Assembly: GCA_024697945.1 (NCBI GenBank)
Contig: JAILRU010000016.1
Span: 4,588-68,587, forward strand
From: Bacteroidaceae bacterium
GTDB taxonomy: Bacteria > Bacteroidota > Bacteroidia > Bacteroidales > Bacteroidaceae
Direction of reading: 5' to 3'
Length of the DNA: 64,000 bases
Shown here: positions 4,001 to 64,000 of the stretch, one piece after another
Position numbering within the stretch: the first letter of the stretch is position 1
Layout of the letters: each line of letters opens with the position of its first letter
Made by a program: the position numbers and the translations under genes
Notes under the pieces: generated by a model
What the model was told of the DNA's origin: nothing
The model's input: the letters and a program-made list of their open reading frames with translations, nothing else
Database searches by the model: none

Positions 4001-6356
4001 GGTAGGAAAGACAGCATTTGGCGGCTGTACGGCTCTTACCACCGTTGGCCTGAATGATGCCAACCTCGACAAAGCTGACAACTGCTTCAACGGTTGCACC
4101 AGCCTGACCAATGTCTATTACAATGGTGCCAACCTGCCACTTACCATCTTCAAGAACTGTAAGAAGCTGGAGAAGGTTGACCTTGGTACAGAAGTGAAGA
4201 CCATCCAGTGGAGCGCCTTCGAAGGTTGCACCGCCCTCAATAATGTATATTGCAACGCTATGACTCCGCCGACACTCGTCAAGGGTACGAAGCACGTCAT
4301 CGACTACTGGGACGGCGACGTGGCTTTCGGTCACGATGAAGATGCCTACGCCTTCGACGGTCTGATGCTCTCCAGCATCAACCTCCTTGTGCCTGCCGAC
4401 CTTATTCCTATATATAAGAAGGAGAATGTCTGGAAGGACATGCACATCGTGGGCGACGAAAGCTACGAAGAGCCGATGTTCCCCGTTGGCGGCAGTTTAG
4501 GCGAAATCGCTTGGTGGCAACTCGACGAAAAGGGCACGCTCACCATTACAGGTGAAGGCGAAATACCTTGGACGGACAATGGTTATGGCTGGTATCACAA
4601 GCTCGACCCGTGGGCATCGTTCACCAAGCACGTTATCTACACTGACGGCATCACCACTATCGCACCTGACATTACAAGCAAAAATACCGATTACAGTACG
4701 GTAGAGACCGTGGAGATTGGTGCCGACGTGACACGTATGAATACTGGCTCTATGCTCTATACCGACCTGACCGACATCTATTGCTTCGCCATCGAACCGC
4801 CGACATTCGGCAACCAAGGTTTTGGCGGATGCTTCAACGTGGAAGCTCTGAAAGCAAAAGGCACAACTCTGCACGTTCCCGACTTCTACGGCACACTGGA
4901 GAAGTACAAGAACAGTACGGGATGGGGATGGTTCATACGCATCGTTGCCGACCTGCCCACACGCAAGCCCGGCACCATCTATGTGGAGAGCCTCGCCCTC
5001 AAGCCCGACGCAAAGCACCTCGCCATCTTGCCCGACGAGCTTGGCAGCTACACCTACCAGATTGAGCCTGTCATCTATCCCGCTTGTGCCGACAACAAGG
5101 TGCTGACATGGACATCGGATGACGAGAGCGTCGCTACCGTCGATGAGAACGGACTTGTCACCATCCTTGCCTATCCCATTGACTACAACATTGTGACCAT
5201 TTCCGCCGTCACCACCGACGGTTCGAACAAGCGGGCAACGTGCGAGTTGTTCATCTACAATCCCGAAGAAGTGCAAGGTGGCATTCCCGCCACAGACCTC
5301 GCCATAAACCGCACCAGCATCACCTTGCTGAAGTCGTCGAAATCGACAGTAAAGGTATCGCTCACACCCGCCAACTCCAACTCGTATGTCTCCACTATGA
5401 TAGAAGGTCAGGGCACAATCGATGTCTTCGAGATGTTTGACCCGATGACTGGTGTCACCCAGAGGAATGTCTTCGAAATCACGCCGAGAGACTTGGGCAC
5501 CTTCGTCATCACCTTCCAAGCAACAGATGTTGATTGGGAACAGGTGAGCGAATACCCGACGGCAGTGCTTACCGTGAACGTCATTGACGACGTCATCTTC
5601 ACGGAGAAGAGCGCGGAAGGTGTGCCCGTGACCTATATCGTTAACAGCCTTGATGAGAACACCTGCTCGCTTTACGGCAAAAGGGAGCAAGAAATTTGGG
5701 TTGACCCCGAGACGGGTATCCCAACATGGGGTGAAGAGACATATTACACAGCCGTTGACACAGAGACAAAGGGCGACGTGACCATTCCTACGAAGGCAGG
5801 CGGCTACTTTGTGGTAGGCGTTAGCAACCTGGCTTTCAGGAACTGCAACAATCTGACGGCAGTCGGCTTCGACGAAGGCATCCAGTTCATCGGCGATCAA
5901 GCCTTCGAAGGCTGCGAATCGCTCCGCGAAGTCTATCTGCCCAGCACCATCCAGGGCTTCGGCATCAACTGCTTTGCTATGCTGAGCGAGTTGGGCGACG
6001 TCTATGTCTTTGGCCAGACACCTCCAGTTGGTGGCTTCGAGTATAACAACTATTGGTATGGAGAGGCAGAGAGCAGCATGGCCTTCGACGGCATCTACAC
6101 CATAGATGAAGAGAAGGGCGCAACGCTCCACGTTCCCGTTGGCTGCCGTGAAGCATGGGACATCTATCCCTGGAACATGTGGTTCAGGAACATCGTAGAA
6201 GATGCAATAGATGGCATTGGAACAATTGACAATGGACAGTTGATAATTGATAATCAGACTGACAGCTGGTACGACCTGAGTGGTCGCAAGCTCGGCAGCA
6301 AGCCCACAAAGTCTGGCCTCTACATCATGAATGGAAAGAAAATCGTGATTAAATAA
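1065..6356 (+). CDS. BspA-type leucine-rich-repeat surface protein with Big_2-like domains and T9SS C-terminal sorting domain (1763 aa)
   Basis: Signal peptide MKKKLLLLLCLIVTAGSTSAQ. Many IGE.AF.GCT.L LRR_5-type units. VATVDENGLVTILA Big_2-like segment. C-terminus WYDLSGRKLGSKPTKSGLYIMNGKKIVIK is a typical T9SS CTD. Confidence 0.85.
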   Translation: MKKKLLLLLCLIVTAGSTSAQNGTCKNGTWKIDDNKLTVDVNGKMANYKVVDEGTNAPWYQYRENFKSIHISSNTKTIGERAFSLLYISRVVSGGENVELIKDYGFSSFDNVKVRFPKVKEVEEHGIRAGFITLPVVETLGEYALSNCSYIDLGSKIKTLQPGCMISESLWKSDGRPSVFMSNPTPPEYTIRHDRPWYEDIANFFGNGIGGLVQDRFFECDFPFGDQPKDNPDAGIIIVIPEQYYDNYLSHYNTPGEPYHMIPTWSDYMAAYYVNKNDHTGWYAETKPCGRMERGEPIYNSSDEFIGWWYYSWDINKGAPEDLHVGFVDGKAVKYMSSNVVPWKSILGKVTTMYLHGDGDEVFTIPSECFKDGKGLQGIKTLYLESATGFDIGEGAFEGCTGLNIVSANDHEVTVGANAFKGCTALSSVKASKLTVGENAFSGCAALTSVSADVAFDGPSAFQGCNLANSRNLKIKGSSIPDYTFKGSSIYNVDLKYIKNIGKEAFYGTGIKDVNLSNFKQLGDQAFANSKVKTLTLGNQTPTIGSKVFMNCTSLTDIYVTANIPANTYPSDMFDGVKVENITLHASPEDYANGYEGHPVWGKMIVDKQFTFPVTGYFAGYPWSLSSDGVLKLGCSDQSWVSEYNEGELPWSLYSDYITDVVIEDGSITIDKNVFAGLKNLVNVSIPRTVRNIGDNAFRGCTSLKNVYITRVETLGNSVFEDCSSLETIELGVTLKSAGDYVFRNCKNLIYIDNITDTPAKVTDLTFKDIKSSVYNQRRNAPAKVSEEDAAQYSVTLKIPDAYVTKYMMDTNWGKFHIPYADDRGTWKKCGQFGDGMWILYDDGTLLIAADQGPGDNYDASQPSVLGFSTSLNNPDDPINFTKEIEITGNITHLSCCFQDFKNLESVTLCPSVKSLNTTFMGCTNLTNINLENIETIAYQTFANTGLTSLSLPNTKSIGEAAFTGCTKLVAVALGSGCQVGKTAFGGCTALTTVGLNDANLDKADNCFNGCTSLTNVYYNGANLPLTIFKNCKKLEKVDLGTEVKTIQWSAFEGCTALNNVYCNAMTPPTLVKGTKHVIDYWDGDVAFGHDEDAYAFDGLMLSSINLLVPADLIPIYKKENVWKDMHIVGDESYEEPMFPVGGSLGEIAWWQLDEKGTLTITGEGEIPWTDNGYGWYHKLDPWASFTKHVIYTDGITTIAPDITSKNTDYSTVETVEIGADVTRMNTGSMLYTDLTDIYCFAIEPPTFGNQGFGGCFNVEALKAKGTTLHVPDFYGTLEKYKNSTGWGWFIRIVADLPTRKPGTIYVESLALKPDAKHLAILPDELGSYTYQIEPVIYPACADNKVLTWTSDDESVATVDENGLVTILAYPIDYNIVTISAVTTDGSNKRATCELFIYNPEEVQGGIPATDLAINRTSITLLKSSKSTVKVSLTPANSNSYVSTMIEGQGTIDVFEMFDPMTGVTQRNVFEITPRDLGTFVITFQATDVDWEQVSEYPTAVLTVNVIDDVIFTEKSAEGVPVTYIVNSLDENTCSLYGKREQEIWVDPETGIPTWGEETYYTAVDTETKGDVTIPTKAGGYFVVGVSNLAFRNCNNLTAVGFDEGIQFIGDQAFEGCESLREVYLPSTIQGFGINCFAMLSELGDVYVFGQTPPVGGFEYNNYWYGEAESSMAFDGIYTIDEEKGATLHVPVGCREAWDIYPWNMWFRNIVEDAIDGIGTIDNGQLIIDNQTDSWYDLSGRKLGSKPTKSGLYIMNGKKIVIK
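6224..6258 (+). repeat. degenerate AATTGAT heptamer run inside the CDS, just before the T9SS CTD
   Basis: aattgac aatggac agttgat aattgat aatcaga encodes IDNGQLIIDNQ directly upstream of WYDLSGRK. Confidence 0.7.
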
Positions 6357-6455
6357 GAACCTCCGTTGATAACGACAATGCTTTCCTAGGGTATTAATTA
6401 ATAATGTTGTTTTAGAGTTAAGGAACACGTTGTCTGCATCGACAAACTAACAGAA

Positions 6456-6491
6456 AATGGGTGTGTCATACGAAATGACGCGCCCATTTTT
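6456..6491 (+). terminator. rho-independent terminator-like hairpin after the LRR gene
   Basis: aatgggtgtgtcat / atgacgcgcccatt stem (G-T wobbles), 5-nt loop, followed by a T run. Confidence 0.6.
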
Positions 6492-6553: not shown

Positions 6554-6636
6554 TCACCGATTTCAGGATAAACGCAAGCAAAAAGTAACATAATTCATCA
6601 ATATTTTAACTTTTAACTCTTAAACATTCCTAAGTT

Positions 6637-7536
6637 ATGGACAAATTGAGAATCGCCGTAGTGGGCTACGGAAACATCGGTAAATATGCTCTGCAGGCTT
6701 TGCAGGCTGCTCCAGATATGGAAATAGCAGGCATAGTGCGCCGCAACGGCGCTGCCAACAAACCAGCCGAACTGGCTGACTATGCCGTGGTGAAGGATAT
6801 CAAGGAACTGGGCAAGGTGGACGTCGCCATCCTGGCCACGCCGACACGCTCGGTTGAGGAACACGCCCTGAAATGTCTGGCATTGGGTATCAACACGGTC
6901 GATAGCTTCGACATCCATACCTCCATCCTCGACCTGCGCCGCAGTCTCTCGGCTGCCGCCAAGGAGCATGGGGCTGTAAGCATCATCTCAGCCGGATGGG
7001 ACCCAGGCAGCGACAGCATCGTCCGCACGCTGATGGAGAGCCTCGCGCCCAAGGGCATCACCTATACGAATTTCGGTCCGGGCCGCAGCATGGGACACAG
7101 CGTCTGCGTCCGCAGCAAGGCGGGCGTGAAGGATGCGCTCTCGATGACTATCCCCGTGGGCGAAGGCATCCACCGCCGCATGGTGTATGTGGAACTGGAA
7201 GAGGGTGCGAGTCTGGAAGAGGTGACGAAAGCTATCAAGGCCGACCCCTACTTCGCCAACGACGAGACGCACGTCTTCCAGGTGGAAAGCGTTGATGCAC
7301 TGAACGATGTCGGCCACGGCGTGAACCTGGTCCGCAAGGGTGTGAGCGGTCAGACGCACAACCAGCTCTTCGAGTTCAACATGAAGATTAACAACCCCGC
7401 CCTCACGGCTCAGGTGCTCGTCAATGCGGCCCGTGCCACGATGAAGCAGCAGCCCGGTGCTTATACGATGATTGAGATTCCCGTCATCGACTATCTCCCA
7501 GGCAATAGGGAGGAAATCATTGCACACCTTGTGTAA
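6637..7536 (+). CDS. ddh: meso-diaminopimelate D-dehydrogenase
   Basis: 299 aa. N-terminal Rossmann IAVVGYGNIGK. ISAGWDPG and FGPGRSMGHS motifs typical of Ddh. Confidence 0.9.
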   Translation: MDKLRIAVVGYGNIGKYALQALQAAPDMEIAGIVRRNGAANKPAELADYAVVKDIKELGKVDVAILATPTRSVEEHALKCLALGINTVDSFDIHTSILDLRRSLSAAAKEHGAVSIISAGWDPGSDSIVRTLMESLAPKGITYTNFGPGRSMGHSVCVRSKAGVKDALSMTIPVGEGIHRRMVYVELEEGASLEEVTKAIKADPYFANDETHVFQVESVDALNDVGHGVNLVRKGVSGQTHNQLFEFNMKINNPALTAQVLVNAARATMKQQPGAYTMIEIPVIDYLPGNREEIIAHLV

Positions 7537-7568
7537 TTGATAATTGACAATTGATAATTGATAATTGG
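7534..7568 (+). repeat. tandem heptamer array (TAATTGA)x5 starting on the ddh stop codon
   Basis: taattga taattga caattga taattga taattgg; the first TAA is the ddh stop. Confidence 0.9.
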
Positions 7569-7708: not shown

Positions 7709-9085
7709 ATGAAGATGAAGAAACTGCTAATAGAGACTTACGGATGCCAGATGAATGTGGCCGATAGCGAGGTCGTGGCCAGCGTGATGGGCATGGCAGG
7801 CTATGAGGTGACTGAGAACATGGACGAGGCAGACGCTGTCTTCCTGAACACTTGTTCTGTGCGCGATAATGCCGAGCAGAAGATTATTCACCGCTTGGAA
7901 GCGCTGAAAAGTGAAAAGGTTAAAAGGCTAAAAGGCAAAAAAGACGGGGCTGTCAATCCCTTCATCATCGGTGTGCTTGGCTGTATGGCTGAGCGTGTGC
8001 GTGAGCAACTCATCGAGGAATACAACGCGGACATTGTGGTTGGGCCAGATGCTTACTTGTCGCTGCCCGACCTCATCGCACAGGTGGAGTGCGGCCACAA
8101 GGCCATCAACGTGGAACTCTCGACGACAGAGACCTATCGCGACATCATTCCCATGCGCATCTGCGGCCCGCACATCAGCGGTTTCGTCAGCATCATGCGC
8201 GGATGCAACAACTTCTGCCACTACTGCATCGTGCCCTACACAAGGGGACGTGAACGCAGCCGCGACGTGGAGAGCATCCTGCGCGAATGCCGTGACCTGA
8301 GAGAGCATGGCTACAAGGAAGTGACACTGCTGGGGCAGAATGTGAACAGCTGGACCCCCTCTAACTCCCCCGTGAAGGGGGAGAACAAAGGGTGCTTCCC
8401 TGAACTTTTGCGAGCTGTGGCGCGGGAGGTTCCTGAGATGCGGGTTCGGTTTACCACCTCGCACCCTAAGGATATGAGCGACGAGACGCTCCGTGTCATT
8501 GCGGAAGAGCCGAACATCTGCCACCACATTCACTTGCCGGTGCAGAGCGGCAGCAACCGCATCCTGAAGCTCATGAACCGCAAATATACGCGAGAGTGGT
8601 ATCTGGACCGCGTGGATGCCATACGTCGCATCATTCCCGACTGCGCCATCTCGACCGACATCTTCGTAGGCTACTGCAGCGAGACAGAGGAGGACCATCA
8701 GCAAAGCCTCTCCCTCATGCGTGAGGTGGGGTACGACAGCGCCTTCATGTTCAAGTACAGCGAACGCCCGGGCACGTATGCCAGCAAGCATCTGCCCGAT
8801 GATGTGCCCGAGGAAGTGAAGATACGTCGGCTGAACGAAATCATCGCCCTCCAGAACGAGCTCTCCGCAGAAGCCAACCGCCGCTGTATCGGCAAGGAGT
8901 ATGAGGTCCTCATCGAAGGCGTCAGCAAGCGCAGCCGCGAGGAACTCTTCGGCAGAACAGGGCAGAACAAGGTGGTCATCGTGCCGCGTGGCAGCCTCCG
9001 CATCGGACAAACGGTTCCTGTCGTCATCACGGAGAGCAGCAGCGCAACGCTGAAAGGAAAGGGGAAAGCGAAAAATGAAAAGTGA
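7709..9085 (+). CDS. miaB: tRNA-2-methylthio-N6-dimethylallyladenosine synthase (radical SAM methylthiotransferase)
   Basis: LIETYGCQMNVADSE UPF0004 N-domain, radical SAM CNNFCHYC, TRAM-like C-terminus. Start could also be Met3 (7715). Confidence 0.9.
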   Translation: MKMKKLLIETYGCQMNVADSEVVASVMGMAGYEVTENMDEADAVFLNTCSVRDNAEQKIIHRLEALKSEKVKRLKGKKDGAVNPFIIGVLGCMAERVREQLIEEYNADIVVGPDAYLSLPDLIAQVECGHKAINVELSTTETYRDIIPMRICGPHISGFVSIMRGCNNFCHYCIVPYTRGRERSRDVESILRECRDLREHGYKEVTLLGQNVNSWTPSNSPVKGENKGCFPELLRAVAREVPEMRVRFTTSHPKDMSDETLRVIAEEPNICHHIHLPVQSGSNRILKLMNRKYTREWYLDRVDAIRRIIPDCAISTDIFVGYCSETEEDHQQSLSLMREVGYDSAFMFKYSERPGTYASKHLPDDVPEEVKIRRLNEIIALQNELSAEANRRCIGKEYEVLIEGVSKRSREELFGRTGQNKVVIVPRGSLRIGQTVPVVITESSSATLKGKGKAKNEK

Positions 9086-9094
9086 AAAGTGAAG
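9074..9094 (+). repeat. heptamer run AATGAAA AGTGAAA AGTGAAG spanning the miaB stop codon
   Basis: Period-7 units; the TGA of unit 2 (9083-9085) is the miaB stop. Confidence 0.8.
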
Positions 9095-11139: not shown

Positions 11140-11855
11140 TGGATTTCATCAACGGAGAGATACTTTGCTTTGACAAGCCGCTGACGTGGACCAGCTTTAA
11201 CCTCGTCAACAAGATACGCGGACATTTGTGCCGCCGCCTCGGCGTGAAGAAGCTCAAGGTGGGACATGCAGGTACCCTCGACCCTTTGGCTACAGGCGTC
11301 ATGGTCATTTGCACAGGACATGCCACAAAGCGCATCGAAGAACTCCAAGCACATGTCAAGGAGTATGTCGCCACGTTGCAGCTCGGAGCCACAACGCCCA
11401 GCTACGACCTTGAGAAACCCATCGACCAGACCTACCCTACGGCGCACATCACCGAGTCTTTGGTGCGCGAGGTACTGGCTCGCTTCCTCGGACGCATCGA
11501 ACAGGTGCCGCCAGCCTTCTCGGCTTGCAAGATAGACGGCCATCGTGCGTATGACCTTGCCAGGAAGGGTAAGGAGGTAGAGCTCAAGCCCAAGGTGCTG
11601 GTCATCGATGAGATAGAGCTCCTCGACTTCAACCAGGAGAAGATGCAGGCCACCATCCGCGTCGTGTGCAGCAAAGGGACATACATACGTGCCTTGGCCC
11701 GCGACATCGGCCTTGCCCTCGACAGCGGTGCACACCTCATCGCTCTGCGACGTACCCGCGTCGGGGACATCCGTGTGGAGGACTGCATGAAGGTTGAGGA
11801 CTTCCCAACCTGGCTGGAGAAACAATACATCTCGAATAACAATATAACGAAATAA
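11139..11855 (+). CDS. truB: tRNA pseudouridine(55) synthase
   Basis: [15 protein letters not shown] catalytic-Asp motif. Start overlaps the uppP stop (TGATG). Confidence 0.9.
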
Positions 11856-11872
11856 CGACAATTCCAACAAAT

Positions 11873-13435: not shown

Positions 13436-16327
13436 TCACCTGATGACTTTCTTGCCATCAATAATGTAAATGCCCCTTGGCAATTTTGAATTTTGATTAT
13501 TGATTTTTGCTCCGCCTGCGCCTGAGCTTTGCGAAGAATTATCAAAGCGGCGTCCGCTTACGTCATAGACGGCATCCTCATTTCGAATTGTGAATTGTGA
13601 ATTATGAATTAATTTTATTCCGTCCTCGATGTCGCTGAACTTCAGTACAAGGCTTTGGATGTCGGGATTCTCGAGTGTAAGGTAGGCCTGATTAGGCTCG
13701 ATTGTCTCGTCGGTAGGGGCATAGAAACCCGGAATGTCGTTCTGACCTTGCAACGTAAGCACGTTAGTGGGACTGGCGGGCATGAAGAGACCCTGAAGAG
13801 CAGTGGCTGTGGAGGGTTGTGCCGTGAAACCTTCACCGTATGTCAGTGAGGCTGTTTCACTTTCACCCCACAGCACGACAGGTGTGCCGGCAGGCACGGC
13901 GTTCCCGACATTCGTGAGGAGCACATAGCCCTCACTGATAGCATCCTCTCCTTTTTCGAGGATATAGACCTTGGCATCGCCCACCGTCACGTCGTAGGGA
14001 AAGCAAAGCGTCGTATAGAATCCTTCACCGATAGGCGTCAACGTTACTGGTGCAGTGGGCACTGTCTCCGCGATGATTTGCGAGCCCAGGTCGGTCTTGG
14101 CATTCTCGCTTTCCCATACTTGCAGATAGCCGTGGGGACCTCCGTGAGTATTGACATAATAGTCTTTTTGGTCCATGAGGCTAAGAGAGAAACCGTCGTT
14201 GTTGGCGTGTACTGTCCAACGGAAGTCCCCTTCACGCAGGACGGTATTCTTGATGTCCGAGACGCCTTGCACGGAAGTGGCCGTACCGTCAACCGTCAGC
14301 GAATAGTCCTCCCCCATGAGCTTGTTGACAATCTTGAAACCCTCAATAGGATTCCCTTTGAATGCCCACTGATAAGCATCGCTGGCACGCACGAGGTCTG
14401 TGGCATAGAGTTCCTCCTCCGGATACTCCCCTACAGATGCTTCGTCGTAAGCGTGAGGGTGGTACGGCTCACGGCCTTCCCATCCGACATAGCGGCCAAG
14501 ACACCCTGCCTTGAGGTTGTACCAGGTATCCGTATCGGAGCTTATCTTGAAAGGGGCGCTGCCAGCCCACGTGACGGTGACTTTGATGGATGTGGAGGTG
14601 ATGTTCTTGGGCGAATAGGCGTAGTTGCAGAAGTCGCGAATATAGGCTTCGGGGAGTGCCGCTGCGGTGCTCAGCTCGCCCGGGACGATGGCTTCGCCGC
14701 ATTTCTCGCCTCCGAAGTAGAGGTTGTAGGTGACGTTGATGGTGTTCTCTATTTCCCAGATGTACTGCATGTCGCTGGCATACTCGGCCACGGGACCCTC
14801 GTCGCCCGTGTTCACCGTCCAGAAGGCCTGCGATGCCGCCTCCTGGTTGCCCGTCCCCTTGGCATTGGTGGCACGGACGGCATACTTGCCCTCGCTGTCC
14901 ATGAAGAAGACCTGTGCCTCCCAGTCCTTGCGCTTGCTGCTCATGTTGGTCCGGAGGCGTCCGGAGTTGTACACCACGCTACCGCTGCTCACCTGAGGGC
15001 TGGTGAAGTAGGCGTTTTGCAGGTTGAAGCCGTAGGTATAGGCTGCACCCTCGACACGCGAGAAGGAGAAGATGCTGGCACCCGACGCGTCGGCAGTCAG
15101 GAGTCCGCGGGTGGTGAGGTAGTACTTCGTGTCGCCGACAGTAGTGGAGACCACATACTTGTTCCCAGGCGTGATGGAGGCCAGGGCGCGGAAATAGTCG
15201 GCATGGGGACTTTCCTTGAAGTTGTTGGCGATGATGGCGTCGGTCAGCGCCTGTCCCTTCACCTGGTAATTGCCGGAAACATCCTCGGCAGCATAGTCCA
15301 TCAACACGATGCCCGTGGAACCCGTATGGCTGTTCAGATAGTCGATGACAACAGGATTCTGCGTGGCTGCATTGTCGCGATACCCGTCGCTGGTTGCTAC
15401 CGTGTTTCCGAAAATCGATGCAGTCTTTGAATAGCCCGATGTCTGATTGACCACCCACAAGCTGGGGTTCGTATTCTCCGTGCAGGAGAACTGCAGCATG
15501 CGCTGGATGCTCGCACTCTTTGTGGCGGGAGCATCGCTGGCCGAGACATCATAGAAGTCCTGCACATACAGTGGACCTTGCGTGCCGATACCATTAATCT
15601 TGGCACCTTGCTGATTGGCGAAGTTCGGATTGAAGCCCCAACCAGAGATGTAGCCACCGACAGGATTGGTGCCGTAGTTATCACGGCAAAGGATAAGGAG
15701 CTTACCCCGCATGTCGCCAAGCTTGGCATCCGGATTGAAGTTCACGGCATGGCTCTTCGTAGGATTGCTGTTGAGCAGTTCCTTCATCTTCGTGCCCCAA
15801 GAATCGTTGTTGTCGTCGCCTTCCGACTCATGGCGGATAAAGATGATACAAGTTTCCGTAGGATGACTGTCCAATAGGCCACAGAGCGTGGTAAGGGCAT
15901 CGTCGAAGTAAAGGTTCGTCGAGATGAGGCCATGATAGATACGCAGGCGGGAGCCATCCACGGCCGGACGCAGGTCGAAAGCACGAATGCCGCTGTTCCA
16001 CTGCTCGGTCAATGTCTTTTCCTGCGTAACCGCGTAAGTCTTGCCGCTCACAATCACATAAGCGTTGTTCACGCCGTGTCCAGTCCCCGCATCGTGAGTG
16101 CCTGGGATGGATATCTGACTGATAAACGTGTCATCCGACACCCCCCCCATCCAGGCTGCATTGTCGGCCAGCATCCGAAGCGTGCCCATTCCCTGTAGAA
16201 GGATTACCATCAAGGCGACAAGGCTTGAACCTCTTAAACCCCTTGAACCCCTTGAACCCCTTGAACCTCTTAAACCTCTTAAACCCCTTGAACCTCTTAT
16301 ACCCCTTTCACTTTTCATAGTATTCAT
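13436..16327 (-). CDS. secreted PI-PLC X-domain-like phospholipase C family protein with T9SS C-terminal sorting domain (963 aa)
   Basis: ISIPGTHDAGT...RAFDLRP...RIYHG pattern of PLC-like phosphodiesterases near the N-terminus. C-terminus AVYDVSGRR...LPRGIYIIDGKKVIR. Confidence 0.75.
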   Translation of the reverse strand: MNTMKSERGIRGSRGLRGLRGSRGSRGSRGLRGSSLVALMVILLQGMGTLRMLADNAAWMGGVSDDTFISQISIPGTHDAGTGHGVNNAYVIVSGKTYAVTQEKTLTEQWNSGIRAFDLRPAVDGSRLRIYHGLISTNLYFDDALTTLCGLLDSHPTETCIIFIRHESEGDDNNDSWGTKMKELLNSNPTKSHAVNFNPDAKLGDMRGKLLILCRDNYGTNPVGGYISGWGFNPNFANQQGAKINGIGTQGPLYVQDFYDVSASDAPATKSASIQRMLQFSCTENTNPSLWVVNQTSGYSKTASIFGNTVATSDGYRDNAATQNPVVIDYLNSHTGSTGIVLMDYAAEDVSGNYQVKGQALTDAIIANNFKESPHADYFRALASITPGNKYVVSTTVGDTKYYLTTRGLLTADASGASIFSFSRVEGAAYTYGFNLQNAYFTSPQVSSGSVVYNSGRLRTNMSSKRKDWEAQVFFMDSEGKYAVRATNAKGTGNQEAASQAFWTVNTGDEGPVAEYASDMQYIWEIENTINVTYNLYFGGEKCGEAIVPGELSTAAALPEAYIRDFCNYAYSPKNITSTSIKVTVTWAGSAPFKISSDTDTWYNLKAGCLGRYVGWEGREPYHPHAYDEASVGEYPEEELYATDLVRASDAYQWAFKGNPIEGFKIVNKLMGEDYSLTVDGTATSVQGVSDIKNTVLREGDFRWTVHANNDGFSLSLMDQKDYYVNTHGGPHGYLQVWESENAKTDLGSQIIAETVPTAPVTLTPIGEGFYTTLCFPYDVTVGDAKVYILEKGEDAISEGYVLLTNVGNAVPAGTPVVLWGESETASLTYGEGFTAQPSTATALQGLFMPASPTNVLTLQGQNDIPGFYAPTDETIEPNQAYLTLENPDIQSLVLKFSDIEDGIKLIHNSQFTIRNEDAVYDVSGRRFDNSSQSSGAGGAKINNQNSKLPRGIYIIDGKKVIR
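13477..13545 (-). repeat. 69-nt block shared with 27779-27847, inserted inside the T9SS CTD
   Basis: Reverse complement is ttgataattcttcgcaaagctcaggcgcaggcggagcaaaa + heptamers + ttgccaa. It encodes FDNSSQSSGAGGAKINNQNSKLP. Confidence 0.85.
13584..13611 (-). repeat. heptamer run (AATTCAC family) in the pre-CTD linker
   Basis: Plus strand cgaattg tgaattg tgaatta tgaatta; encodes LIHNSQFTIRN. Confidence 0.8.
16223..16303 (-). repeat. nine tandem 9-mers (CCTTGAACC / TCTTAAACC) encoding (RGS/RGL)n at the N-terminus of the PI-PLC-like protein
   Basis: Direct reading: 9 consecutive 9-nt units. Protein is MNTMKSERGIRGSRGLRGLRGSRGSRGSRGLRGSS followed by the hydrophobic signal core. Confidence 0.9.
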
Positions 16328-16611: not shown

Positions 16612-16643
16612 GCGGGTGTGTCAAAACTGACACACCCGCTTTT
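16612..16643 (+). terminator. perfect 12-bp hairpin plus T run after tRNA-Gln
   Basis: gcgggtgtgtca aaac tgacacacccgc tttt. Confidence 0.75.
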
Positions 16644-16669
16644 CATTTCATTTATCATTTCTCATTTAG
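16628..16669 (+). repeat. outer inverted repeat, left arm
   Basis: tgacacacccgcttttcatttcatttatcatttctcatttag. Confidence 0.85.
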
Positions 16670-53561: not shown

Positions 53562-53605
53562 CGAAAAAAATGAAGAATGAAGCATGAAGAGTGAAGAATA
53601 TTTTG

Positions 53606-53639: not shown

Positions 53640-56516
53640 ATGAAACGTCTATTCATCATTATTCATTTATCATTTGTCATTTGTTATTTAGCGTTAGCGC
53701 AGTCTCCTACCACACTGGAGGGCTGGGCGGACAGGCTCGACAAGTTCGGCAAGTCCATTCCGCAGGAACAAGTCTTCGTCCACATGGACAATACTTGCTA
53801 TTTCCTGGGCGACACCATCTACTACAAGGCCTACGTGCGCCGAAGCGATACTGGCACACCGAGCCGCATCAGCGGTGTGCTCTATGCCGAGTTGCTGAAC
53901 CAGGACGGCTACCTCGTACAGCGGCAACAACTGGAACTAAAGAACGGACAGGTGCACGGCAGCTTCGTCCTGCAGGACACGCTCTACGGTGGTTACTACG
54001 AGTTGCGGGCCTATACACGGTGGCAGCTCAACTGGGGCATCACGGAGCATGCCCACAACCATTTCTCCGAGCAATGGTTCTACAACAAGCGCATGGCGAA
54101 GGAGTACTATCGCGACTATGAGAAACTCTACAGCCGCGTTTTCCCCGTCTTCGACAAGCCCAAGGAGCCGGGCGATTTCTTCCACGAGATGACGCTTCGC
54201 CCGCTACGCCGTCAGTCCAAGATTGACGAGACTTCGCCCAAGCCCAAGCTGCAGCTCTTCCCCGAAGGCGGTAACCTCGTGGCTGGTGTGGAGAACCGCG
54301 TAGCCTTCGAGGCAACGAGCAACGAGGGCTTGCATCTGGAAGGAAAAGTCCAGGTGACCGAAGGCTCAAGCAATGTAGTGGCTGAGGCTGACATCGAGCA
54401 TCGAGGCCGTGGTTCCTTTACCTTCACGCCTCAGAGCGGCAAGAGCTATAGCGTCATATATACCGGTAAGAAGGGTACGGTGAATGAGAACCTGCCCAGC
54501 CCTGACAAGGATGGCTGCGCAGTGCAGATGAAGCAAGAGAACGGGCAGACACAGGTGCAGGTTGCAGCTGCTGGTGTTGCTGCGACAGAGCCGCTCGGCA
54601 TGACGGTGATGCACGACGGTGTGCTCCTCGACTTCCAGAACATTCCCATAGGAGCATCCGCAACCCTTACCCTTGATGAGGCAAAACTGAAGACCGGCGT
54701 CTGCCAGATTACCATATTCAATAAGGAAGGACGTGTCTATGCCGACCGCCTCTTCTTCTGCCGCAAGGGTGACTTCGCACCAAGCACTCTTCGCTTCACT
54801 GGTCTCAGCAAGAATCCTACTGAACCTTTCGCTCCTATCAGCCTGTCTGTTGAAGGCGGGAAGCCCAGCACCACAGTCAGCGTCTCCGTATGCGATGCAA
54901 CGCACTCCGAGTATATCTACGACAATGGTAACATCCTGACCGAGATGCTTTTGGCAAGCCAGATACGCGGCTTCGTGGAGAACCCGGGCTACTTCTTCGA
55001 GAAGGACGATGCAGAGCATAATCGTGCCCTTGACCTCCTGCTCATGATACAAGGTTGGCGCCGCTACGATTGGCACACGATGACCACGCCTGGTGCCTTC
55101 GAACTGAACCACAAGCCCGAACAGACACCGCTCCTCGTAGGTGAAGTCAACAAGTACATGGCTATCGAACAGGAGTCGCAATTCGCAGACAATTACACTG
55201 CAGTGAGTGCAGGAACCAATGCGACAGATGAAGTCAGCCTGACGGGCAATGAGAATATCGCATCCAACTTAGACAGCGATACCAAGGAGGCTGAGGACGG
55301 CGGTAGCGTGACGGATTCCCGCGCCCTTACCGAAACCACTGGGCGTGACATCCCCGTGCAGAACGATGCCCTTGCCCGCCGTATGCAGAGCGAAGGCACA
55401 ATGAAGCATGAGGTACTGGTCAATGCCCAGTTCTTCAAGCCTGGTGCAGACCAGAAGGTCGATGGCGAGATGATGACCGAGAAGTTCTCGTTCTCCATCC
55501 CCTCACCGCGTTTCTACGAGGGCTGCATCTTCAACCTCGCTGCCAGCGACAGCACCAAGTGGGGAGACAAGAAGCATGTGTGGATTATACCAAGCACGGA
55601 CCGTAACGATAAGCTCAACTATCCTGAGTTCTACGTCCGCCTGCGTCCCTTCTATCCTCGCTTCGTGAAACCCTACGACTGGTACCAATGCCATTTGGCG
55701 GAGGCTCCGAAGGGTTCCGTCATTACTCCCGATTGGGTGATGGATGGCTCGCGCTTGCTCGATGAGGTTACCGTTGGTATTAAGCGTGCCCGCCTGGGCA
55801 AATTCGATCCAACGAAGCCCGCCTATGTCATCGATGCCTACGAAGCCTTCAACGCGGTTTGCGATGCCGGATTCTGTCCGGGTGTATATTATGGCGGCAA
55901 CCGCTTCGTCCGCGACGTTTCACGTACCTATATTGGTGACATGAACCTCTCGCGAGACTATGACCTTGATTTCCGGATGGACGGCAAACGACAGGCCAAT
56001 CAGTCTGCCGTCACGCAGAACCGCACTGACTACGGTGTCAAAGCCAATATCAGCGCAATGCCCGTGGAAACGTTCAACATCTCCTCCAAAAAGAAGGACG
56101 AATACAACCTCTTGAAGAACCTCGGCAAGGTCTATATCTATACCGACTACAGTCCGCGACGTGAGGGCAATTCGCTTTATGATGGCGAGGACATCCCGGA
56201 TGTTACCGTTGACCTTCATCTCATCGATGACATTGGTACACAGCGAACCACCTCCCGCGACCGCCGCTACATCCTGCCAGGATTCTCTGCCCCTGAGAAA
56301 TTCTATCAGCCCAACTATAGCAACAAGCCCTTGCCCGAGGTGAAGGACTACCGCCGCACGCTCTATTGGAACCCCGACCTCGAACTCGATAACAACGGTA
56401 AGGCCGAGTTCAGTTTCTACGGCAATGGCAAACAGACACATTTGACCGTCAGAGCTGAGGGTATCGCTAACGACGGCACACTCCTTACGGGCAAGAGCAT
56501 GCCAGAGGACAGGTGA
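53640..56516 (+). CDS. large secreted protein with N-terminal MG2 (alpha-2-macroglobulin-like) type domains (958 aa)
   Basis: EQVFVHMDNTCYFLGDTIYYKAYV...LYAELLNQDGYLV...GGYYELRAYT and LFPEGGNLVAGVENRVAFEA fit the MG2-domain pattern. The remainder is unassigned. Confidence 0.5.
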   Translation: MKRLFIIIHLSFVICYLALAQSPTTLEGWADRLDKFGKSIPQEQVFVHMDNTCYFLGDTIYYKAYVRRSDTGTPSRISGVLYAELLNQDGYLVQRQQLELKNGQVHGSFVLQDTLYGGYYELRAYTRWQLNWGITEHAHNHFSEQWFYNKRMAKEYYRDYEKLYSRVFPVFDKPKEPGDFFHEMTLRPLRRQSKIDETSPKPKLQLFPEGGNLVAGVENRVAFEATSNEGLHLEGKVQVTEGSSNVVAEADIEHRGRGSFTFTPQSGKSYSVIYTGKKGTVNENLPSPDKDGCAVQMKQENGQTQVQVAAAGVAATEPLGMTVMHDGVLLDFQNIPIGASATLTLDEAKLKTGVCQITIFNKEGRVYADRLFFCRKGDFAPSTLRFTGLSKNPTEPFAPISLSVEGGKPSTTVSVSVCDATHSEYIYDNGNILTEMLLASQIRGFVENPGYFFEKDDAEHNRALDLLLMIQGWRRYDWHTMTTPGAFELNHKPEQTPLLVGEVNKYMAIEQESQFADNYTAVSAGTNATDEVSLTGNENIASNLDSDTKEAEDGGSVTDSRALTETTGRDIPVQNDALARRMQSEGTMKHEVLVNAQFFKPGADQKVDGEMMTEKFSFSIPSPRFYEGCIFNLAASDSTKWGDKKHVWIIPSTDRNDKLNYPEFYVRLRPFYPRFVKPYDWYQCHLAEAPKGSVITPDWVMDGSRLLDEVTVGIKRARLGKFDPTKPAYVIDAYEAFNAVCDAGFCPGVYYGGNRFVRDVSRTYIGDMNLSRDYDLDFRMDGKRQANQSAVTQNRTDYGVKANISAMPVETFNISSKKKDEYNLLKNLGKVYIYTDYSPRREGNSLYDGEDIPDVTVDLHLIDDIGTQRTTSRDRRYILPGFSAPEKFYQPNYSNKPLPEVKDYRRTLYWNPDLELDNNGKAEFSFYGNGKQTHLTVRAEGIANDGTLLTGKSMPEDR
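53662..53691 (+). repeat. TCATTTN heptamer run ending TTATTTAG, encoding the signal-peptide core IHLSFVICYL
   Basis: ttcatttatcatttgtcatttgttatttag. Confidence 0.85.
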
Positions 56517-56522
56517 TTAAAA

Positions 56523-56543
56523 GTTGAGAGTTGAGAGTTATAG
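56523..56543 (+). repeat. GTTGAGA GTTGAGA GTTATAG spanning the TTG start of the methyltransferase gene
   Basis: Direct reading. The same word in reverse complement occurs at 62576. Confidence 0.85.
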
Positions 56544-59181: not shown

Positions 59182-59190
59182 CGAAAAAAA

Positions 59191-59289
59191 GTTGAAAAGT
59201 TGAAAAGTTAAAAAGTTAAAAAAGTGAAGAGTTAAGGATAATTCTTCATTCTTCTTTATAATTTTGAATTTTGAATTTTGAATTTTGAA
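59191..59289. repeat. about 100 nt of consecutive word arrays between divergent promoters
   Basis: gttgaaaa x2, gttaaaaa x2, gtgaagagttaagg, attcttc x2, (attttga)x4. Confidence 0.85.
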
Positions 59290-59299
59290 TTATATGTTG

Positions 59300-61512: not shown

Positions 61513-63293
<1,781 letters not shown>

Positions 63294-63338
63294 AACCACT
63301 CAGGGATACTTGCAAGTGCCCTCAGCGAACTTCGATTC

Positions 63339-64000
63339 TCACTCAACCGTGAATTTTTTCCCGTTCTCGATGTAGATTCCACGTGCAGGTTTGCCAGAGA
63401 GACGACGGCCCTGAAGGTCATAGACGGCATCATCATTTATCATTTGTCCTTTATCATTTAGACATGGAGCGTCGCTGATTCCATCTACCATTTCGTCCGT
63501 GAGGTCGCCAACGATGGTGCCGTACTTGGCCCAGTTTGAGGCCTTGTACTTCTCAAGGGCACTGGCATAGACATGAATAGTGGGATTGCTATTGAAGATG
63601 TAATCCCCGAGGGTCGGAGGCATGAGAGCCTTCACGTATGCATCCTTGACAGGAGAATTATAGAAGACTCCCTGGCTCATTGTCTTGACCTTTTTGCCGA
63701 TAATGACCGTGGCGAGGGTGCTGCTGCCACCGAAAGCTTCGAGACCGATACTGGTCACAGCATCGGGAATATCTATCATCCTAAGTCCAGAGAAGCGGAA
63801 GGAGCGGTCTCCTATCGTGGTTGTCTTCAGGGGCAGACGCATGGAGATGAGCTTCTTGAAACTGTCGAAGGCATAGGGTCCTATCTCGTTGAGCGATGTC
63901 GTATAGCTCTGGTAATAGGCATAATTGCCCGATACAATCTTGGCTTCGGAGAGGTCGATGGATGCGAGGTTTCCTTCCGCGATGAGCTTGCGCAGGTAGC
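63339..64000 (-). CDS. BspA-type LRR protein with T9SS CTD, 5' end outside the window
   Basis: The frame stays open to the window edge. The module is about 60 percent identical to the C-terminal LRR module of the M60 protein. C-terminus AVYDLQGRRLSGKPARGIYIENGKKFTVE. Confidence 0.8.
   Translation of the reverse strand, partial: YLRKLIAEGNLASIDLSEAKIVSGNYAYYQSYTTSLNEIGPYAFDSFKKLISMRLPLKTTTIGDRSFRFSGLRMIDIPDAVTSIGLEAFGGSSTLATVIIGKKVKTMSQGVFYNSPVKDAYVKALMPPTLGDYIFNSNPTIHVYASALEKYKASNWAKYGTIVGDLTDEMVDGISDAPCLNDKGQMINDDAVYDLQGRRLSGKPARGIYIENGKKFTVE
63434..63462 (-). repeat. TCATTTA-family heptamer run in the pre-CTD linker
   Basis: Plus strand tcattta tcatttg tccttta tcatttag; encodes LNDKGQMINDD. 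Confidence 0.85.

Follow-up and report, generated by a model that had tools for sequence, protein, structure and literature searches.

The window (the whole 64-kb stretch of DNA analysed here) carries genes for, among others, an LRR/Big_2 surface protein, MiaB, TruB, a topoisomerase, arginine decarboxylase, LRR-M60 proteins, C1 and M28 peptidases, a radical SAM/SPASM protein and ETF-beta, and short tandem arrays lie at their ends, between them and inside them (Table 1). Tandem Repeats Finder (TRF) returns about 35 period-7 rows, and removal of overlaps leaves 22 period-7 arrays with 2.8 units or more, together with five arrays of period 8, four of period 9 and two of period 11. A strict census counts 10 arrays of period 7 in the window and 0 in 20 local-composition shuffles, which bears out the proposal of the first-pass annotation that the arrays are non-random with period 7 dominant. 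The same dominance is seen over 629 kb of the clade, with 158 arrays of period 7, 23 of period 9, 21 of period 8 and 6 of period 6. The arrays average approximately 29% GC; the window itself, at 51.6% GC, had been described with some overstatement as GC-rich.

Table 1. Tandem arrays and array-bearing elements of the window (xN, number of units).
Coordinates	Strand	Feature	Evidence or remark
6222..6254	+	(AATTGAC/AATTGAT) x4.7, in-frame near C-terminus of LRR/Big_2 surface protein 1065-6356	TRF, sequence, Pfam
6604..6623		(TTTTAAC) x2.9, 14 nt 5' of diaminopimelate dehydrogenase start (6637)	
7534..7567	+	(TAATTGA) x4.9, begins on stop of gene 6637-7536; then terminator-like hairpin 7568-7597	TRF, sequence, fold
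7914..7941	+	Period-8 (AAAAGGCT) x3.5, in-frame, MiaB linker	TRF, sequence
9065..9093	+	(AAAGTGA) x4.1 across MiaB stop codon (9083-9085)	TRF, sequence
11835..11858	+	Period-8 (AATAACGA) x3, TruB stop codon	Identical in 2 other strains
13482..13509	-	Degenerate (CAAAATT) x4, C-terminal tail of protein 13436-16327	Paralogous copy of 27815-27842, 94% over 82 nt
13585..13610	-	(AATTCAC) x3.7, in-frame, C-terminal tail of protein 13436-16327	
16628..16681		Outer inverted-repeat arm with (TCATTTA) x3 (16648-16668), adjoins tRNA-Gln	87% complementary to 18122-18175
16800..16855		Inner inverted-repeat arm with (AAAAGTAC) x4	
17179..17283		Dispersed hairpin element, GAAGTTAAAG / CTTTTAACTTC inverted arrays	Self-BLAST, fold
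17581..17752		Hairpin of inverted GTACAAA arrays, 108-nt loop	
17983..18033		Partner arm of 16800-16850, with (TTTGTAC) x2.4	
18122..18175		Partner arm of 16628-16681, with (TAAATGA) x3 (18135-18155)	
18473..18495	+	Period-8 (GACTAAAC) x2.9, ends 2 nt 5' of topoisomerase start codon	
23254..23287	+	(TAGTCCA) x4.6, begins on arginine decarboxylase stop codon	
25287..25321	+	(GAGTTAA)-type array, in-frame, LRR-M60 protein	
26985..27017	+	(CACTCTT) x4.7, in-frame, LRR-M60 protein	
27815..27842	+	Perfect (CAAAATT) x4, in-frame (KFKIQNSK), LRR-M60 C-terminal tail	
27915..28030		Second copy of GAAGTTAAAG hairpin element (27915-28001), 3' of gene 24487-27888	Fold z = -5.9
30679..30696		(AAAAGTG) x2.6, then period-13 and A-rich repeats, 5' of C1 peptidase gene	
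30821..30846		ATTTTGAATTTATAAATTTTGATTTT, inverted partner (92%) of 32283-32308; pair flanks C1 peptidase gene	
32283..32311	+	(AAATTCAAAATTAAT) x1.9, C1 peptidase stop to RbfA start	Identical in 9 strains
33864..33886	+	(ATTAAAG) x3.3, covers FtsX-like stop, ends at radical-SAM start	
34002..34031	+	Perfect (AATTCAA) x4.3, in-frame (+7 residues), loop of radical SAM/SPASM protein	
40152..40178	+	(AGACAAC) x3.9, directly 3' of C1-peptidase stop codon	
41219..41243	+	(TTTATCA) x3.6, codes hydrophobic core of M28 peptidase N-terminal signal-like segment	
41461..41492	+	(AAGATGG) x4.6, in-frame, M28 peptidase	Local seed still visible in L029 orthologue
46094..46142		(TTTTCAC) x2.1 and perfect (ATTCTTC) x4.4, between divergent HU-HIG and ETF-beta genes	
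46665..46707	+	Period-9 (AAGAAGTTA) x4.8, in-frame, ETF-beta	Ancestral EEILSLKDGK overwritten
52018..52048	+	(AATTCAC) x4.4, in-frame, DUF3472 protein	
53569..53599		(AATGAAG) x4.4, 5' of promoter-like motif, minus-strand kinase gene	Module copy of 46112-46161
53651..53690	+	(ATTTATC) x5.7, codes signal-like N-terminus of protein 53640-56516	
56522..56539	+	(AGTTGAG) x2.6, fills spacer from stop at 56516 to next gene	
59186..59291		Three-array composite 5' of promoter-like motif: period-8 (AAAAGTTG) x5.9, (ATTCTTC) x2, perfect (AATTTTG) x4.6	
62572..62604	+	(AACTCTC) x4.7, in-frame, dCache/SpoIIE protein 61500-63293	
63432..63460	-	(TAAATGA) x4.1, degenerate, in-frame, tail of LRR-M60 paralogue	

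Nearly all of the sites listed in the first-pass annotation are present in the sequence, namely TTCAAAA (13482, 27815, 30821, 32283, 34002 and 59260), TAATTGA (7534), GTGAAAA (9065, 30679 and 46094), ATTCTTC (46112, 53569 and 59241), TCATTTA (16648, 18135, 41219, 53651 and 63432), AATTCAC (13585 and 52018), GTTGAGA (56522 and 62572) and the GATGGAA, GTACAAA and TAGTCCA sites. Three listed items are weak: AATTGAT near 27779 has no more than about 1.5 units, the TTCAAAA site at 23289 is an imperfect pair, and most of the GTTAAAG sites have period 9-11. Dozens of different words occur, and the claimed sharing of words between unlinked loci stands: with paralogous and module copies excluded beforehand, 26 window arrays form 15 identical-word pairs where three null models predict 0.6-1.5, an approximately 10-fold excess reached in 0 of 5000 simulations. 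Because a stop-free filter still leaves about 370 effective words, it cannot account for this reuse. Array length, whether the context is coding or non-coding, has its mode at 30-33 nt, with a steep drop beyond, and the longest perfect run is 33 nt or less without exception, unlike period-8 and period-9 arrays, whose length distribution decays monotonically; this peak and limit are not predicted by simple slippage. Additionally, an exact 32-mer, (AATTCAA)4AATT, is found at unrelated loci that include several phage contigs, and the (AATTTTG) run of the composite at 59186..59291 is the exact 32-mer that phage contigs share.

The suggested association with gene termini is borne out, as 30% of arrays lie at stops against 4.4% under random placement (7-fold) and 19% at starts against 3.5% (5-fold), whereas 33% lie within genes against 83% expected. 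Specifically, arrays sit, as had been claimed, on stop codons (7534, 9065, 23254 and 33864), directly ahead of starts (18473 and 33864), between divergent genes (46094-46142), by inspection only in signal-peptide-like N-termini (41219 and 53651), and in-frame within enzymes (34002, radical SAM/SPASM; 7914, MiaB; 46665, ETF-beta; 41461, M28 peptidase); their placing in linkers before T9SS domains is weakly supported, by one sub-threshold TIGR04183 match. Words at stop junctions carry a stop in 41 of 48 cases when read on the sense strand and in 27 of 48 when read on the antisense strand, a content that is partly circular since the array includes the stop codon itself. Start-junction words carry ATG, and arrays adjoin promoter-like TAnnTTTGCA boxes. 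Within genes, 44 of 52 arrays are free of stops on the sense strand, and all are in-frame in every strain compared. Coding arrays lengthen the gene by 21 nt (7 residues) and are placed in tolerant loops; in line with the earlier view of three units as a frame-neutral step, those in the radical-SAM loop all add exactly 7 residues. One and the same protein loop was the independent target of three heptamer words and of several GC-rich palindromes.

Some arrays clearly form the arms of hairpin elements that are either dispersed or strain-specific, or are carried along with promoter modules. Arrays related to AAAAGTAC recur at 17581-17607 (reverse complement), 17730-17752 and 17992-18008 (reverse complement). 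The hairpin at 17585-17752 is precisely absent in strain L116, where the deletion leaves a solo array, and the array-armed hairpin element at 18165-18305 is absent in 7 strains. The 46094-46142 array, together with the promoter-like TAnnTTTGCAC, is copied at 53551-53599, and a (TGAAGAA)n-AATTTGCTRCCGC module stands at five non-orthologous gene ends. Other arrays have grown step by step out of local seeds: the seed of the GATGGAA array at 41461 is seen as ATGGAAATGGAAGCAGATGG in the L029 orthologue, and L027 and L141-144 have one AATTCAAAA unit at the place where the window has four. The suggested templated-insertion or mobile process is supported for the former subset only.

Among same-species assemblies (98.7-99.8% identity), heptamer length is unchanged in 74 of 74 array-by-strain comparisons and octamer unit number changes in 0 of 20 (approximately 1% divergence), while SNPs occur within the arrays at a normal rate. 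Longer arrays of period 9, 11 and 27 do vary among strains, and the non-coding GTACAAA array at 17992 has one additional unit in L112/L114. The unit-number polymorphism sought in orthologous alignments is absent from these 74 heptamer comparisons within the species and present between species, where both unit numbers and words differ. In the AraC-to-GH5 spacer, TAGTTCA occurs as 2, 3 or 4+ units (14/15, 21/23 and 30/33 nt) across species. One and the same junction may hold other words or other orientations in different species, as at 33864, and many species have a spacer of just 1-4 nt where sister species carry arrays; the TAGTTCA and AAATAGT word families are retained at the same junction in many highly diverged species. 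The coding array at 34002 is identical at 30 of 30 positions between the window and L121, with flanks that are about 18% diverged by our count, which implies homogenisation, selection or transfer.

In an uncultured rumen Prevotellaceae clade, to which the genome of the window belongs, array density amounts to 2.4-3.4 per 10 kb; relatives of about 71% identity have 0.15 per 10 kb, as do other phyla. Phages have such arrays too: in contigs that encode a terminase, a portal protein and a tape-measure protein they stand at gene junctions as well as within the terminase and portal genes, and in phage L088 nearly all gene junctions have them. The arrays are likely to be a genome-wide trait of this clade and of phages of similar sequence.

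We favour, as fairly probable, the reading that the arrays are heptanucleotide simple sequence repeats (SSRs) of the "long SSR"/STRR kind, made by lineage-biased slippage and then filtered by selection. A lineage-specific replication or repair bias would make AT-rich 7-mers prone to slippage and to duplication in tandem, with units gained or lost, per array, at about the order of point substitution per site; such slow change would leave arrays fixed within species and turned over between species. Selection would set where they persist, as the positional data largely show. Arrays would survive directly 5' of promoters and in intergenic spacers, where the amplified 7-mer often would hold the stop or start codon itself, a stop-codon 7-mer giving stops in all three frames; within genes they would survive only where a loop, a linker or a signal-peptide core tolerates them, only in stop-free orientation and only in +21-nt (three-unit) steps. 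The shared vocabulary would stem from paralogous protein tails, from dispersed hairpin and promoter modules bearing arrays, from seeding on stop and start codons, and, for the remainder, from a bias towards a small set of AT-rich words that these sources do not explain. That no described element class fits, as had been stated, does not hold: heptameric SSRs are an over-represented class in many bacteria (Mrazek 2007, as related in PMC4679880 and PMC4692102), and what these two articles relate includes a polymerase-footprint slippage hypothesis, differences between close species and occurrence as inverted pairs. These "long simple sequence repeats" are the closest class in that literature, and the cyanobacterial STRR, Xanthomonas GGGAATC and Beggiatoaceae TAACTGA repeats are among the nearest described heptamer cases. 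The window arrays belong to a known yet unexplained class of bacterial repeat.

Three other readings were weighed. Hypermutable contingency loci, whose unit number would switch genes on and off, are hardly credible: a period indivisible by 3, the presence of arrays close to promoters and in the 5' part of coding sequences (signal peptides), and the one-unit GTACAAA difference speak for them, but tracts have 3-5 units only, intragenic arrays stay in-frame, and the 0 of 74 heptamer unit changes within species contradict the idea, as do the 0 of 20 for octamers. The arrays are not phase-variation switches; their unit number is stable within species. It is also rather unlikely that they are selected cis-elements of gene expression, with slippage merely their origin. 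At junctions they might then be AT-rich, structure-poor spacers that halt all three frames and offer Shine-Dalgarno-less Bacteroidota ribosomes an open landing or re-initiation site, and 5' of promoters they might act as UP-like or -33-supplying tracts. The enrichment at stops and starts, the sense-strand bias of stop-carrying words, the ATG in start-junction words, the abutting promoter-like boxes, the two retained word families and phage L088 all agree with this, and 30-33 nt suits a size-constrained element; yet sister species hold opposite orientations and unrelated words at the same junction, many species have only 1-4 nt there, one third of arrays lie within coding sequence, the words number dozens, and the stop content is in part circular.

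A dedicated templated or insertional process, writing approximately 3-4 units at once into host and phage DNA from limited heptamer templates, seems quite improbable; its candidates would be a recombinase, a polymerase or primase, or footprints left when hairpin elements whose arms are arrays are excised. It would accommodate word reuse far over chance, a length quantised at about 4-5 units in all contexts with a hard limit of 33 nt, the 32-mer shared by unrelated host and phage loci, the array-armed hairpins present or absent between strains, the AATTTGCTRCCGC module and the repeatedly struck protein loop. Against it, private words derive from local sequence, orthologous junctions show intermediate unit numbers, simple arrays are flanked by no target-site duplications or terminal signatures, the Pfam matches in the window include no candidate enzyme, and frame constraint alone (one seed plus three units) explains the 4.x units of coding arrays. 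Slippage with selection, in turn, is strained by the word reuse, the length peak and limit, the 32-mer, the 34002 identity and the arrays that travel in larger modules or strain-specific hairpins.

In strains L065/L066, the spacer at 23254 is swapped for a recombination patch, and the GACTAAAC word also precedes the start of another gene.

Tandem Repeats Finder returns 107 rows for the 64-kb window, of which approximately 35 have period 7 and lie at the array sites listed in the first-pass annotation. After overlap removal, the window holds 22 arrays of period 7 with 2.8 or more units, together with five of period 8, four of period 9 and two of period 11. In a stricter census, array density clearly exceeds that of shuffled controls, with 10 period-7 arrays in the window vs 0 in 20 shuffles preserving local composition. 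The GC content of the arrays is only ~26–29%, compared with 51.6% for the window. Reading the arrays together with their flanks bears out the words and most of the contexts proposed in that annotation, except that "AATTGAT near 27779" amounts to 1.5 units and that the "GTTAAAG" group is mostly of period 9–11. The genes of the window form a typical Bacteroidales set, including BspA-type LRR/M60 surface proteins, meso-diaminopimelate dehydrogenase, MiaB, TruB, QueA, topoisomerase I, arginine decarboxylase, C1 peptidases and ETF. An Rfam search of the window detects two tRNAs only, and none of the arrays falls within an RNA family.

A search with the window's radical SAM/SPASM protein against species-representative genomes identifies 63 loci, the 31 closest of which (77–90% identity) all belong to uncultured rumen or herbivore-gut "Prevotellaceae/Bacteroidaceae" MAGs. 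In the 629 kb comprising the window and these 31 relatives, period 7 accounts for 158 arrays, vs 6, 21, 23 and 3 for periods 6, 8, 9 and 10. Specifically, period-7 density, measured on the retrieved loci of related species, is 3.44 arrays per 10 kb in the window, 2.41 in the 31 close relatives (565 kb), 0.15 in relatives at 70–72% identity (132 kb, 55% GC), 1.03 with patchy distribution in more distant Bacteroidales, and 0.15 in other phyla. The difference between the 31 related loci and the outgroups marks the arrays as a trait of the lineage rather than a peculiarity of the window. An assembly artefact is ruled out by the presence of the same arrays in independent ENA, Logan and GenBank MAG assemblies; JGI and IMG/VR contigs carry arrays of the same kind. 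The arrays are a lineage-wide property and, at the level of the sampled loci, have the hallmarks of heptameric long simple sequence repeats (LSSR), namely head-to-tail tandem copies of a 7-nt unit, seen both by Tandem Repeats Finder and in the sequences, and over-representation of period 7 in the comparison with shuffles, the period spectrum and the tails of perfect runs.

Within the species, the heptamer arrays are stable. Exact-protein look-ups gave contigs of the same species from some ten independent metagenome assemblies; these cover 10.7–42.6 kb and 49.7–64 kb of the window at 98.7–99.8% identity, decreasing to 95–98% in the variable segment at 16.3–18.2 kb. The length of heptamer arrays is the same in 74 array-by-strain comparisons, a count that includes some contigs fetched twice and is therefore somewhat higher than the independent number, with 0 unit changes; octamer arrays keep their length in 20 of 20. 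Eight heptamer comparisons contain a SNP, indicating a normal point-mutation rate within the arrays, and two cases show a 1-nt difference in an adjacent A-run. The sole heptamer-type unit change is the gain of one unit in a short GTACAAA array. Given a mean strain divergence of ~0.7%, the unit-change rate per array does not exceed the substitution rate per site by more than a few-fold, a bound that contingency loci exceed by many orders of magnitude. The contingency SSRs of Haemophilus, Neisseria and Campylobacter are long tracts whose unit number varies between and within strains. The window arrays resemble them in that the unit is not a multiple of three and in lying in or near genes, including surface-protein genes, but differ in being short (mode 4–5 units, against tracts of >6–8 units) and invariant across strains; moreover, the intragenic arrays are in-frame in all strains. 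We therefore reject phase-variable contingency loci, and with them the "hypermutable contingency tract" reading of the first-pass annotation. Length does vary between strains in arrays of period 9, 11 and 12, and a 9/27-nt coding repeat in a surface protein is, unlike the heptamers, genuinely length-polymorphic.

Exact-protein look-ups for 49871–52219, 12948–13424, 46214–47113, 10276–11139 and 6637–7536 give no match, which leaves the arrays at 6222–9093 outside the strain comparison. Relatives of 91–98% identity are absent from the metagenome scan, and the birth of an array is accordingly not caught in the act. In the same-species contigs L065/L066, a patch of ~100 nt is wholly replaced between flanks of 100% identity; it takes in the spacer arrays, the end of the preceding arginine decarboxylase gene and the opening codons of the gene that follows. 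A local burst at 23254–23310 is ruled out as its cause, because synonymous changes have reached saturation in the final 8 codons of the upstream gene beside identical flanks, which instead indicates a short recombination patch from a diverged lineage.

Between species, the arrays turn over. Each gene junction of a syntenic block was followed by inspection across 20–38 species; clustering by 100-nt flanks into orthologous sites was dropped, since it linked adjacent junctions into a single cluster of 100 arrays. The AraC-to-GH5 spacer measures 14/15, 21/23 or 30/33 nt, corresponding to 2, 3 or 4+ units of TAGTTCA and hence to stepwise change. The GH5-to-M24 spacer holds AAATAGT, AAATCGT or AAATTGT arrays of varied length and is otherwise 3 nt long. 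In the FtsX-to-radical-SAM spacer, the window has ATTAAAG, many species have its reverse complement CCTTAAT, others have AACCCCT, GAATTAT (which supplies the ATG), GTGAAAA or CTTAACT, and ten species have none. Additionally, many junctions in the relatives carry arrays paired in inverted orientation about a central stem. On the time scale that separates species, arrays thus appear and disappear, and their words and orientation change.

The placement of the 158 heptamer arrays of the clade departs from random placement. Within 12 nt of a stop codon lie 30% (4.4% at random), at start codons 19% (3.5%), inside genes 33% (83%) and in other intergenic positions 18% (9%). The words follow the context. 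At stop junctions, 41 of 48 words contain a sense-strand stop, such as TAATTCA, TGAAGAA, TAGTTCA and TAAAGAT, and since 7 is not divisible by 3, a run of three units puts a stop in each reading frame; the words at start junctions include ATG (ATGAATT, ATGAACT). The sense strand is free of stops in 44 of 52 intragenic arrays and the antisense strand has one in 35 of 52, which implies that only the translatable orientation survives. In the radical SAM protein, a loop immediately following YYLEKQHL is an insertion hot spot that, depending on the species, is empty or holds (AATTCAA)3–4, (GGAGCAA)4, (AATGGTC)3 or any of several palindromic inserts rich in GC. The four-unit heptamer inserts counted there (window and the related loci L020 and L002/L036) add exactly 7 residues (21 nt) to the empty allele, explaining why coding arrays comprise 4.x units, as one seed plus three units. 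A lone AATTCAAAA unit occupies this loop in the related loci L027 and L141–144, and the GATGGAA array of the M28 peptidase corresponds to ATGGAAATGGAAGCAGATGG in the L029 orthologue, which is direct evidence of growth from a local seed. In ETF-beta, a period-9 array has replaced the ancestral EEILSLKDGK. The arrays shift start and stop calls and yield repeated heptapeptides in conserved enzymes.

The first-pass annotation stressed the recurrence of the same words at independent loci. Some of this reuse reflects copying: paralogous segments occur in LRR/M60 C-terminal tails, an element with array arms is repeated, and promoter-like modules are common to unrelated genes (ETF-beta, a kinase and a PTPS/QueD-like gene). 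The near-identity of these modules suggests promoter duplication or mobility. Inverted array pairs lie beside tRNA-Gln and around a C1 peptidase gene. A (TGAAGAA)n-AATTTGCTRCCGC module stands at five non-orthologous gene ends in different species; its AATTTGCTRCCGC motif, which resembles the Bacteroidetes -7 box and sequence upstream of tRNA-Gln, is also found 5' of the HU-HIG gene of the window. After removal of paralogues and module copies, the excess persists: 26 independent window arrays form 15 identical-word pairs vs 0.6–1.5 expected under three null models, a value reached in 0 of 5000 simulations. A stop-free constraint is ruled out as the cause, leaving ~370 effective words. Stop- and start-codon seeding restricts which words can arise, and a real preference for a few of them remains, with AATTCAA, TCATTTA, GTGAAAA and GAAGAAT favoured. 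A search for a single binding motif across the arrays yields no common consensus; AATT, TTAA and GTAC cores are common and not universal.

The alternative that the arrays are footprints of a mobile or templated process, also raised in the first-pass annotation, applies to a subset. Specifically, one hairpin element occurs in two copies, another is precisely deleted in one strain, and a 140-nt near-perfect hairpin is absent from 7 of 7 other same-species strains, in which a short unrelated hairpin takes its place, with a similar element at another junction in the related locus L005. These features recall MITE-like dispersed palindromic elements; no target-site duplications were found. The simple arrays, in contrast, lack both an inverted partner and conserved flanks, and local seeds exist for many of them. 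A minority of arrays thus form part of palindromic elements or are possibly their scars.

The length of the arrays bears on the same question. Heptamer arrays peak at 30–33 nt in every context (median 29 in genes, 31 at stops and 31.5 at starts), their counts drop sharply beyond 36 nt, and the longest perfect period-7 run in 629 kb is at most 33 nt; for periods 8 and 9, counts fall monotonically from the detection limit onward. This peak is not predicted by simple slippage, nor is the full conservation of one coding array in the related locus L121 between flanks that differ by ~18% in our own count. The peak may reflect frame constraint, for coding arrays only, a stability threshold beyond which out-of-register homology (length minus 7, ~26 nt) turns recombinogenic, a size-constrained function or a one-step writing process; block duplication (7 to 14 to 28 nt) may also account for it, and several arrays do have perfect period-14 structure. 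A dedicated, sequence-selective process that writes ~21–32-nt heptamer blocks from a small shared vocabulary into chromosome and phage DNA of the clade would fit the recurrence of one exact 32-mer, the length cap near 33 nt and the use of arrays as arms of mobile hairpins. We nevertheless judge such a process improbable; if it exists, it would constitute a novel mechanism of templated micro-insertion rather than a form of ordinary slippage.

Arrays also occur in phage DNA. The exact 28-mer (TTCAAAA)4 is present in 27 IMG/VR contigs, and several IMG/VR contigs of 45–60% GC carry multiple heptamer arrays with words common to the window or its relatives (AATTCAA, AGTCCAT, AGTTAAG). Among these contigs, L088, with genes for a large terminase, a tape-measure protein and an endolysin, has arrays at nearly every gene junction and within the terminase gene, and L085, with genes for a portal and for a major head protein, has one array within the portal gene. 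As a compositional signature, the arrays might tie phage contigs to hosts of this clade.

Coordinates of arrays, hairpins and associated features in the window
Position	Partner position	Feature	Observation
8354-8392		GC-rich palindrome	in MiaB
13436-13795 (-)		TIGR04183 / Por_Secre_tail (T9SS type A sorting domain)	sub-threshold, E = 0.003, 17.4 bits vs cut-off 23
13477-13558	27766-27847	LRR/M60 C-terminal tails	94% paralogue
16224-16307		in-frame 9/27-nt repeat, CTTGAACCC, 9.3 copies	near N-terminus of surface protein 13436-16327; 84, 93 or 111 nt by strain
16525-16596		tRNA-Gln	
16600-18180		nested inverted repeats	beside tRNA-Gln
16628-16681	18122-18175	inverted array pair	beside tRNA-Gln
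16800-16850	17983-18033	inverted array pair	beside tRNA-Gln
16893-17141 (-)		82-aa ORF	no family match
17179-17283	27915-28001	hairpin element, repeated	arms GAAGTTAAAG / CTTTTAACTTC arrays
17390		period-11 array	length varies between strains
17585-17752		hairpin	deleted in same-species strain L116, solo two-unit array left
17992		GTACAAA array, 2.4 units	non-coding; +1 unit
18165-18305		140-nt hairpin	stems GAGGGTGTGTCA/TGACACACCCTC, arms = inverted ACGGATT 9-mers
18160-18309		fold of this hairpin	-69 kcal/mol, z = -12.9
23232-23327		replaced spacer	L065/L066
24487-27888		LRR_5-Peptidase_M60 paralogue	
25137		period-12 array	length varies between strains
27604-27675	63501-63572	LRR/M60 C-terminal tails	paralogous
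27717		period-9 array	30 vs 21 nt between strains
28064-28090		GC-rich palindrome	intergenic
30821	32283	inverted array pair	flanks C1 peptidase gene
30839-40146		syntenic block	
33888-35117		radical SAM/SPASM gene	
34002		coding array	30/30 identical in L121
45153-45203		22-nt-unit array	downstream of gene
45319-45391		22-nt-unit array	downstream of gene
46112-46161	53551-53599	(ATTCTTC)4 + TAnnTTTGCAC promoter-like box	copied
52249-52311		22-nt-unit array	downstream of gene
53526-53562	59299-59335	37-nt promoter-plus-leader	97% identical
59260		exact 32-mer (AATTCAA)4AATT	also IMG/VR loci L086, L088, L093, L094/L099, L110
60017-60055		GC-rich palindrome	in QueE-like radical SAM gene 59671-60282
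63339-64000		LRR_5-Peptidase_M60 paralogue	

The first-pass annotation knew of no described element class that fits, a view we revise, because the arrays share the defining features of heptameric LSSR (PMC4679880, PMC4692102). Mrazek, Guo and Shah (2007; as cited in PMC4679880 and PMC4692102) reported that in many bacteria no LSSR class is more abundant than the heptameric one, and the suggested cause of period 7 is that 7 nt matches the DNA segment held by the polymerase (PMC4679880, PMC4692102). Both sets show dominance of period 7 among 5–11-nt repeats, lineage-specific enrichment, mostly non-coding position and no link to phase variation, and the proposed LSSR origin, slippage tied to the polymerase footprint, counts as a further likeness. 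Distinct from LSSR so described, the window arrays have many AT-rich words at ~52% GC, lie in-frame inside genes in one third of cases, peak sharply at 30–33 nt and occur in phage contigs.

Other described heptamers include those of Calothrix/Nostoc and Xanthomonas GGGAATC, which is intergenic, at times paired in inverted orientation, and of unequal length in sister species (PMC4692102). Cyanobacterial STRR/Nostoc GGGGA(T/C)T, Xanthomonas GGGAATC and the window arrays are all intergenic heptamer tandems, some in stem-loop-capable inverted pairs, and occupy the same gene junction in sister species with differing length and sequence (PMC4692102). STRR/Xanthomonas repeats, which are rich in G and could form G-quadruplexes, draw on one or few words in each genome and reach 26 units (PMC4692102), whereas the window arrays are AT-rich, of many words and 3–5 units. 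TAACTGA, known from marine Beggiatoaceae, where 2–6 copies stand just upstream of starts, and also from some Cyanobacteria and five Bacteroidetes, is like the window arrays a stop-containing heptamer lying before starts or after stops and seldom in ORFs (PMC4679880). It is a single word with proposed horizontal spread (PMC4679880), whereas the window vocabulary is broad and context-linked. The window contains 0 TAACTGA tandems, and GGGAATC and GGGGA(T/C)T are absent among its consensus units. The further STRR words CCCCAGT, TTGGTCA and CAACAGT are likewise absent among these units. Since their specific words are missing from the window, the STRR and TAACTGA families are best regarded as analogues only. 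A further possible analogy is with the omega-repressor heptads of inc18 plasmids (consensus WATCACW, 7–10 copies, bound by one ribbon-helix-helix protein), which are likewise 7-bp units in direct and inverted orientation beside promoters; for the window arrays, however, no ribbon-helix-helix protein and no single consensus is seen.

Taken together, the observation is real and statistically solid, and the arrays belong to a described, mechanistically unexplained class of heptameric SSR. The literature searched yielded no description for Prevotella, Prevotellaceae or rumen Bacteroidales. New here are the host lineage, the large AT-rich and context-linked vocabulary, the sharp characteristic length, the frequent in-frame 21-nt additions to conserved enzymes and the occurrence in phage contigs too. 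To our knowledge, the dominance of 7-nt units in bacterial long simple repeats, a question since 2007, has no established mechanism or function. This clade could suit its study, offering dozens of comparable words, hundreds of species-level rumen metagenome genomes, chromosomal and phage arrays, a clean selection filter (stop-free orientation, +21-nt steps in enzymes) and a characteristic length of ~31 nt.

Several further features accompany the arrays. LRR_5-Peptidase_M60 surface proteins of ~1100 residues have at least three paralogues with conserved C-terminal tails (two window segments and contigs L074–L077), and two more copies lie just past the right end of the window. For the T9SS context named in the first-pass annotation, the TIGR04183 / Por_Secre_tail search gives one sub-threshold match and no match in the other paralogous tails. 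Gene calls around arrays differ between the L064–L068 assemblies and the window (radical SAM 358 vs 409 aa; C1 peptidase 447, 459 or 477 aa; cation efflux 282 vs 298 aa), and arrays appear to disturb start-codon prediction. The segment beside tRNA-Gln, whose nested inverted repeats enclose several repeat arrays and an 82-aa ORF, is the most variable of the window between strains (95–98% identity, many indels) and may be a decayed insertion at a tRNA gene.

GC-rich palindromic hairpin elements, such as CCCCCTCTAACTCCCCC-GTGA-GGGGGAG, often with a GNRA-type loop, lie in-frame in conserved enzymes, recalling the likewise in-frame Rickettsia palindromic elements. The same type occurs in relatives (L001–L038, L122–L148) in the radical-SAM loop, where it alternates with heptamer arrays between species, and at intergenic junctions. 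Finally, the 22-nt-unit tandem arrays, whose unit is a small palindrome, e.g. AATCGGTGTACGCCGATT, are common in relatives too (29 in 629 kb) and look like clustered hairpins of REP/BIME type.
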